The notes under the pieces were generated by a model that ran no database searches, had not been told where the DNA came from, and saw only the letters and a list, made by a program, of their open reading frames with translations. From an uncultured Desulfospira sp. (lineage in GTDB: Bacteria; Desulfobacterota; Desulfobacteria; Desulfobacterales; Desulfobacteraceae): a DNA stretch of 64,000 nucleotides. Location of the stretch: positions 2,432,001 through 2,496,000 of the forward strand of contig OY760175.1 of assembly GCA_963663165.1 (NCBI GenBank), in the 5' to 3' direction. Positions 35,836 to 37,945 of this stretch are shown piece by piece; the first letter of the stretch is position 1, and the number at the start of each line of letters is the position of its first letter. A program made the position numbers and the translations under genes.

Positions 35836-37945
35836 ATGCACAAACTGACGGCGGCAGCCAAAGCCGTATTCCCGATGCTCTTCTGGCTTGCCCTATGTCT
35901 TTTTCCCGGGATTGCGCTATCCCAGGAAGCTCAGAAAGACGATAAAGAGATCGTCGAGCTTGAAGAGGTCACGGTTATAGGAACCCAGCCGGGTGTGGAT
36001 ATCACGGCTGAAAAAACCGTGATTGACATGGATCAATTCAAAAAACCCGGGTCCACCGCCACCTTGACCGATGTGCTTTCGGAAATCGGCGGTGTAGATG
36101 TCCAGCGGGCCAATGCCCTTATGGCAAGCCCGGGGGACGAGGTCTCCATCAGGGGACTTAACGAAGGACGGATGGTCATAGAAATTGATGGCCGGCGGAT
36201 CAACCACACCGGCCATTACGGGCGGTATATCGTGGACTGGTCCACCCTGACCCTGGATGATGTGGAAAAAATTGAAATTATCCGAGGCGGTCACTCGGTC
36301 CTTCACCCCTTTGCCATTGGCGGGGTAATCAACATTATTACCAAAAAAGGGCCTAAAGACGGCCAGAAATTCAGCGGTCATGTCAATACCGGGTACGGCC
36401 GGTACAACACCTGGACTGCCACGGCATCGGTTGCCGGCAGCGCCAGCGAATATGTGGATTTCCACCTTTCAGGCGGTGAACAGGAAACCGATGGCTATTT
36501 AAGAAACAATTTCCAGGACACCAAATCCTTATAACGGGCACGTGGACATCCACCTGCCTTGTGAGGCAAACATTTATCTTGGCATTAAACATACCGAGAT
36601 AGAATACGGCATGCCCGTGGTCAATGACCCCAATGATTCAAATCCGGCCATTGCCGCCCTTTATGATTCAAGCTACCCCATATTCACCCGGGGGTCCGAC
36701 CAGCTGCGCCATTTGAACTGGCCCCAGTATCCGGGCGGACAAACCCCCATGTGGGAAAAAAAAACCGATTACCTGGACGCCATTTTCACCATACCGGCAG
36801 GCCCGGGCACCATAAAGATTCATGGATTTATGACCGACGGGCACCGAAGGACCAGCCTTTACGCCAAGTCCGGTGCATTTGATGAAAATGTGCTGTCAAG
36901 GGACCGGACTCAAGGCGTGATTGCAGAGTATTCGGATGTGGAATTGTTTGACAACCACAGCCTTACCATGGGCCTGGAATACCAGGAACTGGGCGATCCC
37001 GAAGGCATCAAGGCCATTTACCGTGTCAAATCAGCCTATATTCAAGATGTCATCTCCATAGGCAGCAAATGGACGGTTACCCCGGGGGTCCGGTATTACC
37101 ACCTGGATGAATCCACCTATTATTCCTGGATGGAAATGGGATTCGCTTCCCAGCCCCCCGGATGGCCCTTTGCCTTTGACAACAGCGAAAAAAAAGAAAC
37201 CGACTCGGATTTTTTTCCCAGTCTAAAGGTGGATTACAGGGTCACCCCGGATACCACCTTATACGCGGCAGCCTCAAAGTCCTACCGGCTGCCCTGCCCT
37301 TGAGATTACTACTGGTGGGCGCGGTGCGCCTCCGAGACCAATACGAATCTTGAACCTGAGACCGCTACAGAGTACGAAATCGGCATCATCAAAAGCTTTG
37401 ACAAAGTCCATTTCAGGGCAGCCACCTGGTATTACGATATTAAAAATTTTATTAACGACAACGGGATTACAGCCCCGGGCTCCGGAGCAGGCTCCAATTG
37501 TCTTTACAATATTGATTCCGTGGAGCTGTACGGGTTTGAACTGGAAGCCGCCCTTCATTTAAGTAAAAAAATCAAGCTGACCGCATCCTATGTGTACCAG
37601 GAACACGACGTCACCCAGACCGGGTATGAGCAGGACTGGAGCTATTACCTGCCGGCAAGCCTTCCCAAGCACAAGGTCAAGGTCCTGGCCGGATATGAAA
37701 TCATCCCGGACGGCTGGATTGAGCTAAGCTCCCGGTTTGTCGGCTCCAGGGGTTCCCAGCAGAACAACGAGCTGGACGACTATATTGTCTGTGACTTAGG
37801 ATTCAGCAAAAAGCTGATCTTTGGCGGCCTGGAATATGACTTAAAATTATATGTCAACAATATCACCGGCACGGATTATGAAGAAGTGGCCGGCTACCCC
37901 ATGCCTGAATATGTCTGGGGCATGTCATTAGGGGTTAGTTTTTAA
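35836..37945 (+). CDS. TonB-dependent receptor, about 702 aa when joined; in-frame TGA at 37301-37303 (predicted selenocysteine) and a +1 frameshift at 36529-36530
   Basis: Signal peptide, TonB box EEVTVIG and plug (SIRG..IDG..VEKIEIIRG..GGVINIITKK) in 35836-36534; barrel continues in 36542-37303; after the TGA the same frame stays open (DYYWWARCASETNTNLEPETATEYEIG...) into 37520-37945 and ends in GVSF. Confidence 0.85.
37313..37334 (+). promoter_or_regulatory. Bacterial SECIS-like stem-loop
   Basis: UGG-(bulged U)-GGGCGC-[GGU loop]-GCGCCU-CCG; apical loop starts with G, 20 nt after the UGA. Confidence 0.7.

Follow-up and report, generated by a model that had tools for sequence, protein, structure and literature searches.

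The window, a stretch of 64,000 nucleotides from an uncultured Desulfospira sp., contains a TonB-dependent receptor gene (35836–37945, plus strand) that forms the last gene of a putative metal-uptake operon. The operon is headed by a sigma70-type promoter (30716–30739, plus strand; TTGACA, a 17-nt spacer and TATACT) that is conserved in nine of ten aligned leaders. Two further elements follow on the same strand: a small hairpin with a UGAA loop (30758–30773), whose counterparts in relatives have different stem sequences, and a terminator-like hairpin with the motif GCCAYGAAGG and a U tract (30903–30960), conserved in relatives; the leader is of the attenuator type. The genes, all on the plus strand, encode a FecCD/BtuC-type ABC permease (31054–32094; PF01032, E 8e-89), an ABC ATPase (32107–32898; PF00005), a class I SAM methyltransferase (32895–33773; PF13649), a periplasmic binding protein (33749–34990; PF01497), a second class I SAM methyltransferase (34994–35641; PF08241) and then the receptor. 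An invariant WTPCNC(E/D)KR motif in the binding protein is present in 15 of 15 same-family loci of the PCPU receptor type described below; its P-C-N-C resembles the P-C-P-U of the receptor.

The strict 5-bp form of the small hairpin occurs in 20 of 39 leaders, compared with 9 of 1950 shuffles, the window's own stem being imperfect. The leader pattern is found in 45 of 161 genomes of the family (reversed control, 0). No Rfam family matches the leader at gathering score, and a search of the window from 24 to 46 kb returned only chance miRNA-type matches on the terminator hairpin. Among 22 PCPU loci, the leader lies 5′ of the operon in 12, with a variant form in one more, and the pattern is missing in 10, four of which have only 1.6–4.1 kb of upstream sequence. 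With a relaxed pattern, seven sites are seen in this genome. Six of these precede TonB/ABC units, which include NikA-like, DUF4198, DUF364 and CooC-like genes; the term CooC-like is our own reading of an N-terminal motif for which Pfam gives CbiA/ParA. The seventh site precedes an operon in which nitrogenase-like genes accompany one for a Ni-hydrogenase-like large subunit; the NikA-like and hydrogenase scores all fall below the NCBIfam cut-offs. The order of genes after this seventh leader (G000:C1:1751777-1760654) is an aspartase-like gene, a HydF-like GTPase, the Ni-hydrogenase-like large subunit, a further gene and NifH/NifD-like genes; by its predicted content this is an unusual metallocofactor operon. 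The thirty genes tested behind the leader pattern in relatives comprise nine binding proteins, five receptors, three permeases, two DUF4198 proteins, one FmdE, one CooC-like protein, one methyltransferase, one PadR and seven without a Pfam match.

Between the second methyltransferase and the receptor lies a conserved element on the minus strand (35657–35758), in which a promoter (TTGACA, 18 nt, TATGTT) is followed by a hairpin. It is present in 10 of the 22 PCPU loci, where the promoter consensus is TTGACA-18-TATRHT and the hairpin often has U's after it. This arrangement suggests a candidate small antisense RNA some 70 nt long, with no match in Rfam. The pyrimidine tract in the promoter spacer can pair with the ribosome-binding site of the receptor on the plus-strand mRNA, and the two tend to covary. 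A strong, perfect-looking hairpin (35763–35798) is also seen between this element and the ribosome-binding site; the hairpins of relatives differ in sequence. Beyond the receptor, two paralogous polysaccharide-deacetylase-like genes (38085–38915 and 42085–42936) flank genes for a nitroreductase and an NADH:flavin oxidoreductase. The pair adjoins a TRAP transporter, and the gene at 38085–38915 is absent at this place in one relative, L048.

The receptor family, its fold and its selenocysteine codon

The receptor sequence is divided between two reading frames of the plus strand. The 5′ part (35836–36534) encodes a signal peptide, recognised by eye, the plug (PF07715) and, by comparison with an ortholog model, the first three barrel strands, and ends in TAA. 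The 3′ part (36533–37945; PF00593) lies in the +1 frame and supplies barrel strands 4–22. An earlier, sequence-only reading of this DNA had described the TGA as the lone stop of the barrel frame until 37945, and frame reading confirms this: within 36524–37945 the sole stop is the TGA at 37301–37303, in the context ...ASKSYRLPCP-TGA-DYYWWARCASE.... The same reading had taken three ORF calls as one readable receptor, which they are not, given the TAA at 36532–36534 and the barrel in the +1 frame; the extra base at 36531 had been missed.

For both pieces the best NCBIfam match is NF049947, 'TonB-dependent receptor, PCPU motif-type' (NCBIfam release 20.0; cut-off 800 bits). Scored separately, they span consecutive stretches of the profile, giving 378 bits over profile positions 19–227 and 786 bits over 232–685; neither reaches the cut-off because the copy is split by the frameshift. 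An intact ortholog from the same genus (G113) scores 1189 bits against the same cut-off. The P-C-P-U motif with its in-frame TGA is present in the window gene and identical in the relatives inspected, and on these profile and motif matches we assign the gene to the PCPU family. Among named records the nearest come from an uncultured Desulfospira, at 95%, and from Desulfobacter latus, at 88% identity.

Together, PF07715, PF00593 and the ortholog model give a plug and a 22-strand barrel with a terminal Phe, as in TonB-dependent receptors. The AlphaFold2 model of the G113 ortholog, built from 42 alignment rows (pLDDT 78, pTM 0.78), has the plug followed by 22 barrel strands. In this model a long loop, extracellular loop L7, joins strands 13 and 14; P-C-P-U opens it, and a short helix comes after the motif. 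The numbering of L7 and L8 is our own reading of the strand list and standard TonB-receptor topology. A further Cys is modelled in L7, and the Cys of a GSNC motif in L8. The Cys and His residues singled out in the sequence-only reading prove to be mostly invariant. In the 42-row alignment, for which the CP-U columns were part of the selection, the Cys of a WARC motif, the two His residues of GGHSVLH, His259 and His296 are found in 42 of 42 rows, the GSNC Cys in 41, and the two His of NHTGH in 32 and 38. A fold search with the ortholog model matches Fiu, BtuB and PqqU. Sequence and fold searches of the PDB yield generic TonB receptors only, at 13–18% identity, with no clue to substrate.

Receptors of this kind had been thought new, a view that does not stand: NF049947 is already curated, and TonB receptors that contain selenocysteine (Sec) have been published (PMC12013277, PMC13188914). 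NF049947 has the same P-C-P-U motif and family, and its one-line model description names no substrate. Three further models, NF049944 (PUIUD), NF049946 (CU) and NF049945 (FCYXU), also describe TonB receptors with in-frame Sec from the same phylum; they are separate models, to which the barrel here gives only 98–289 bits. A TonB-dependent receptor selenoprotein from Desulfosarcina sp. BuS5 was predicted with deep-Sep in 2025 (PMC12013277) and is placed as FCYXU type, NF049945, in a 2026 review (PMC13188914). Our literature search found no paper with both 'PCPU' and 'selenocysteine', and none whose title concerns the leader or receptors of the PCPU type. Related families have PUVUD, GCUD, GCCD or Met in the same loop, and the majority of distant receptors lack a sulfur residue at that point. 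Where the motif is PUVUD or GCUD, the relatives have their Sec in this loop too, and those that were folded show similar hairpins. Receptors at three loci (L025–L027, from G105–G107) have two Sec codons (P-U-V-U-D) and one shared downstream hairpin, and are PUIUD-type by motif.

The Sec codon of the P-C-P-U motif (37301–37303, plus strand) would fall in extracellular loop L7. Matches above the family cut-off occur in 14 of 160 other genomes of the family and in 7 of 400 genomes of the phylum, each with exactly one TGA and a single open frame. A metagenome scan with a pattern that permitted TGA, TGY or TGG at the Sec column gave 77 matches, comprising 62 with TGA, 15 with TGY and none with TGG. 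All 62 of the matches in receptor context have TGA; the 15 TGY matches come from frames unrelated to the receptor, with stops close by, and were rejected. In a set of 58 database homologues, 56 stop at ...LPCP, a single one (P0006) continues with Cys and the last is a partial sequence; the pairing of Sec with Cys in P0006 is seen at the protein level only. Two proteins of the CU sister type, P0063 and P0068, also have Cys at this column. The ends at ...LPCP bear out the expectation of the sequence-only reading that standard pipelines truncate such genes. The 213 codons 3′ of the TGA have a dN/dS of 0.043 relative to L048 and 0.048 relative to L044, lower than the part 5′ of the TGA (0.146 and 0.141, respectively). 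The host genome encodes selA, selB, selD and tRNA-Sec (selC), all four genes sought, with selD itself containing a TGA. The presence of selA in 21 of 21 carriers of the PCPU receptor is uninformative for Sec, because it is found in 188 of 201 genomes of the phylum in any case.

The hairpin GGGCGC/GGU/GCGCCU noted downstream of the TGA is present at 37317–37331 (plus strand), with its loop at 37323–37325, 19 nt from the UGA. A bulged U that had been described in it is inconsistent, being an internal loop in one fold and absent in another. The Fig. 2 legend of PMC13188914 gives the limits for bacterial SECIS elements as a loop of 3–9 nt with G in the first two loop positions, a stem of 4–16 bp, a distance of 16–37 nt from the UGA and an MFE of −7.5 or lower. 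With its 3-nt GGU loop, 6-bp stem, 19-nt spacing and −9.2 to −12.6 kcal/mol, the hairpin falls within all of these. Synonymous sites and pair counts support a GCGC/GCGC core. In 63 distinct segments, compared at positions outside the metagenome search pattern, Ala+6 is encoded by GCG in all 63, Cys+8 by TGC in 60, and Ala+9 by GCG or GCC only, whereas the invariant Ala residues at −11 and +21 use all four codons. All 57 distinct rows keep the four inner pairs (three as G-U). None of the six pairs changes on both sides, and partners slid by two columns pair equally well, so that the evidence for a SECIS is codon constraint and not covariation. Fold stability was likewise rejected as proof, with z between −0.08 and −2.08 over four lengths, three of the four not significant against shuffles. 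The proposal that the TGA is a Sec codon served by a SECIS is upheld by TGA in 21 of 21 relatives, the frozen hairpin codons and purifying selection after the TGA. On this comparative evidence SelB almost certainly decodes the UGA as Sec in the intact relatives, through the GCGC-GGU-GCGC hairpin.

Substrate of the intact receptors

Among 22 distinct PCPU loci, a tetrapyrrole methylase is present in 11, FmdE in six and DUF4198 in four. The query used for this methylase found no ortholog in the present genome, giving a 30% match only. In the same genome DUF3842 and CooT are adjacent in two places, and NikR_C was not found (the genome being 97% complete). No cobalamin riboswitch (RF00174) precedes the operon in the window or in 16 loci, the two matches lying elsewhere, and the BtuB family model TIGR01779 gives 67 and 27 bits for the two receptor pieces against a cut-off of 599.7. 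At locus L059 a cobalamin riboswitch (L059:8669-8861) is found directly 3′ of the PCPU receptor on the same strand; it has no obvious target gene and faces the end of a B12-type uptake operon on the opposite strand.

The shared leader, the gene neighbours and the position of the motif in the loop all point to nickel or cobalt, and we lean towards one of these as the substrate of the PCPU receptors. That Sec is itself a direct metal ligand is plausible, if somewhat less so. The fuller proposal, which we make tentatively, is that intact PCPU receptors import nickel (or cobalt), with the Cys and Sec of L7 as direct soft ligands, and that the GAA-hairpin attenuator takes over as the switch in place of NikR. 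In the main reading the permease, ATPase, methyltransferases, binding protein and receptor of the operon would together serve metal uptake. With Sec inserted at the UGA, as is almost certain for intact relatives, the product would be a plugged 22-strand barrel whose loop L7 opens with Cys-Pro-Sec and has one more Cys, L8 contributing another. Such soft ligands, possibly aided by the invariant His residues, could trap Ni(II) or Co(II), free or in a small complex, outside the cell; TonB would open the plug, and the P-C-N-C binding protein may then pass the metal to the ABC importer. The sequence-only reading had likewise considered a soft-metal-binding or redox-gated site, and the soft-metal part of that idea is indirectly supported by the leader and the neighbouring genes.

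A different role for the intact members is possible, although we lean against it: the cargo could be a metal-tetrapyrrole or corrinoid precursor, zinc or an iron complex, and Sec, rather than binding the metal, could join a nearby Cys in an Se-S bond that is structural or acts as a redox switch. The ABC system is of the BtuC/FecCD type, which also fits corrinoid or porphyrin-type cargo, and the tetrapyrrole methylase stands beside half of the loci (11 of 22). Zinc is suggested by DUF4198, since the one characterised member, from Neisseria, is described as zinc-binding (PMC12663993), and in the ortholog model four Cys/Sec residues lie in extracellular loops where they could pair. The lack of a B12 riboswitch before the operon argues against a corrinoid, and the leader is shared with Ni/Co-type genes. 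In sister families this position of the loop is taken by Sec, Cys or Met, as would be expected for a soft-metal ligand.

Nickel TonB-dependent transporters listed in PMC11247825 are FecA3, FrpB4, CntO, NikH and Bll6948. These share with the PCPU receptors the proposed role of TonB-driven nickel uptake feeding an ABC importer, but no close sequence relation is seen; the best PDB matches are PqqU/YncD and CirA (E ~1e-17), with CntO at E 1e-5. To our knowledge, none of the five contains Sec. Should the nickel or cobalt proposal be correct, selenium would serve surface metal capture and not redox catalysis, and selenium supply would be tied to nickel uptake in sulfate reducers. What is new here for the PCPU family is the modelled L7 position of Cys-Pro-Sec, the GAA-hairpin/terminator leader and a testable Ni/Co substrate.

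The frameshift at 36531 and the fate of this copy

A single extra A at 36531 (plus strand), 770 bases 5′ of the TGA and outside any homopolymer run, produces the +1 frameshift that sets plug and barrel in separate frames. Translation from 35836 with TGA read as Sec reaches the TAA at 36532–36534 after 232 residues, and the window copy has no single continuous frame from signal peptide to C-terminal Phe. Inspection of the barrel piece revealed neither a ribosome-binding site nor a signal peptide. All 14 of the 14 family relatives aligned at the site have one base fewer and read through, and in comparison with L048 the extra base is the only frame-breaking indel within the receptor gene.

Contigs assembled from runs X1 (122x) and X2 (212x), which represent one sample and possibly the assembly's own source, match 35300–38400 with neither a difference nor a gap. 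Run X3, from another study, represents a 94%-identical strain with 144 differences over 2267 bases, and lacks base 36531; contigs of run X7 do not extend over this position. The extra A is real in the sample, where an intact minority allele is possible because contigs drop rare alleles. It is very improbable that the gene is intact and the base an assembly error. Such an error would fit the purifying selection on the remainder of the gene and the lack of any other lesion, and breaks in 4 of 83 related loci may perhaps be assembly errors; against it stand the unbroken agreement of the X1 and X2 contigs and the fact that the extra base interrupts a T run rather than lengthening one.

The extra base might instead create a programmed +1 frameshift site (UUA UAA C) for low-level or regulated expression. 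With its Leu codon, the stop after it and the C that comes next, the sequence resembles the prfB frameshift site. We consider this very improbable, however, because the site is not conserved, being absent from the 14 aligned relatives and from the 94%-identical strain; re-pairing from UUA to UAU would also be poor, and no Shine-Dalgarno-like sequence lies just upstream. Hardly tenable is the remaining alternative, that the TGA truly terminates translation or else is decoded as Trp or Cys: it could appeal to a hairpin no more stable than shuffles and to the uninformative selA co-occurrence (21 of 21, on a background of 188 of 201), but the 213 codons after the TGA evolve at a dN/dS of about 0.045, codons within the hairpin are constrained, P0006 is a probable Cys homologue, TGG is absent among the 77 pattern matches, and TGA terminates ordinary genes in the window.

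With insertion as the preferred explanation, the one extra base would very likely end translation after the third barrel strand, so that no receptor is made in the window strain. Because dN/dS is normal and the gene has no further lesion, the mutation is taken to be recent, and the window copy is most likely a recent pseudogene. The functional Sec receptor proposed for this locus is contradicted by the contig-supported frameshift upstream of the TGA, and the 'pseudogene' label that the proposal expected pipelines to apply in error is probably correct. No polar effect is expected, since the receptor is the final gene of the operon. The overall reading, a metal-uptake receptor of the PCPU family with Sec in its intact relatives and a broken copy in the window, is one we hold to be likely. 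The window gene is a further, broken member of a catalogued family and the locus itself therefore adds little; it does illustrate a trap, in that a true Sec codon can sit in a pseudogene. For a test of the substrate, the window strain could be set against near relatives with an intact receptor, a loss-of-function pair provided by nature.

Elsewhere in the genome an intact paralogue (G000:C1:4482064-4484190; 351 bits on NF049947) reads R-T-P-T-G-M-E, with Met at the Sec column, and has a GCCACGGAGG variant of the leader upstream. This Met-type paralogue is a possible functional backup. Another TonB receptor (G000:C1:5035656-5040264) is seemingly split, its plug and barrel pieces lying about 2 kb apart, and is possibly a second inactivated receptor.
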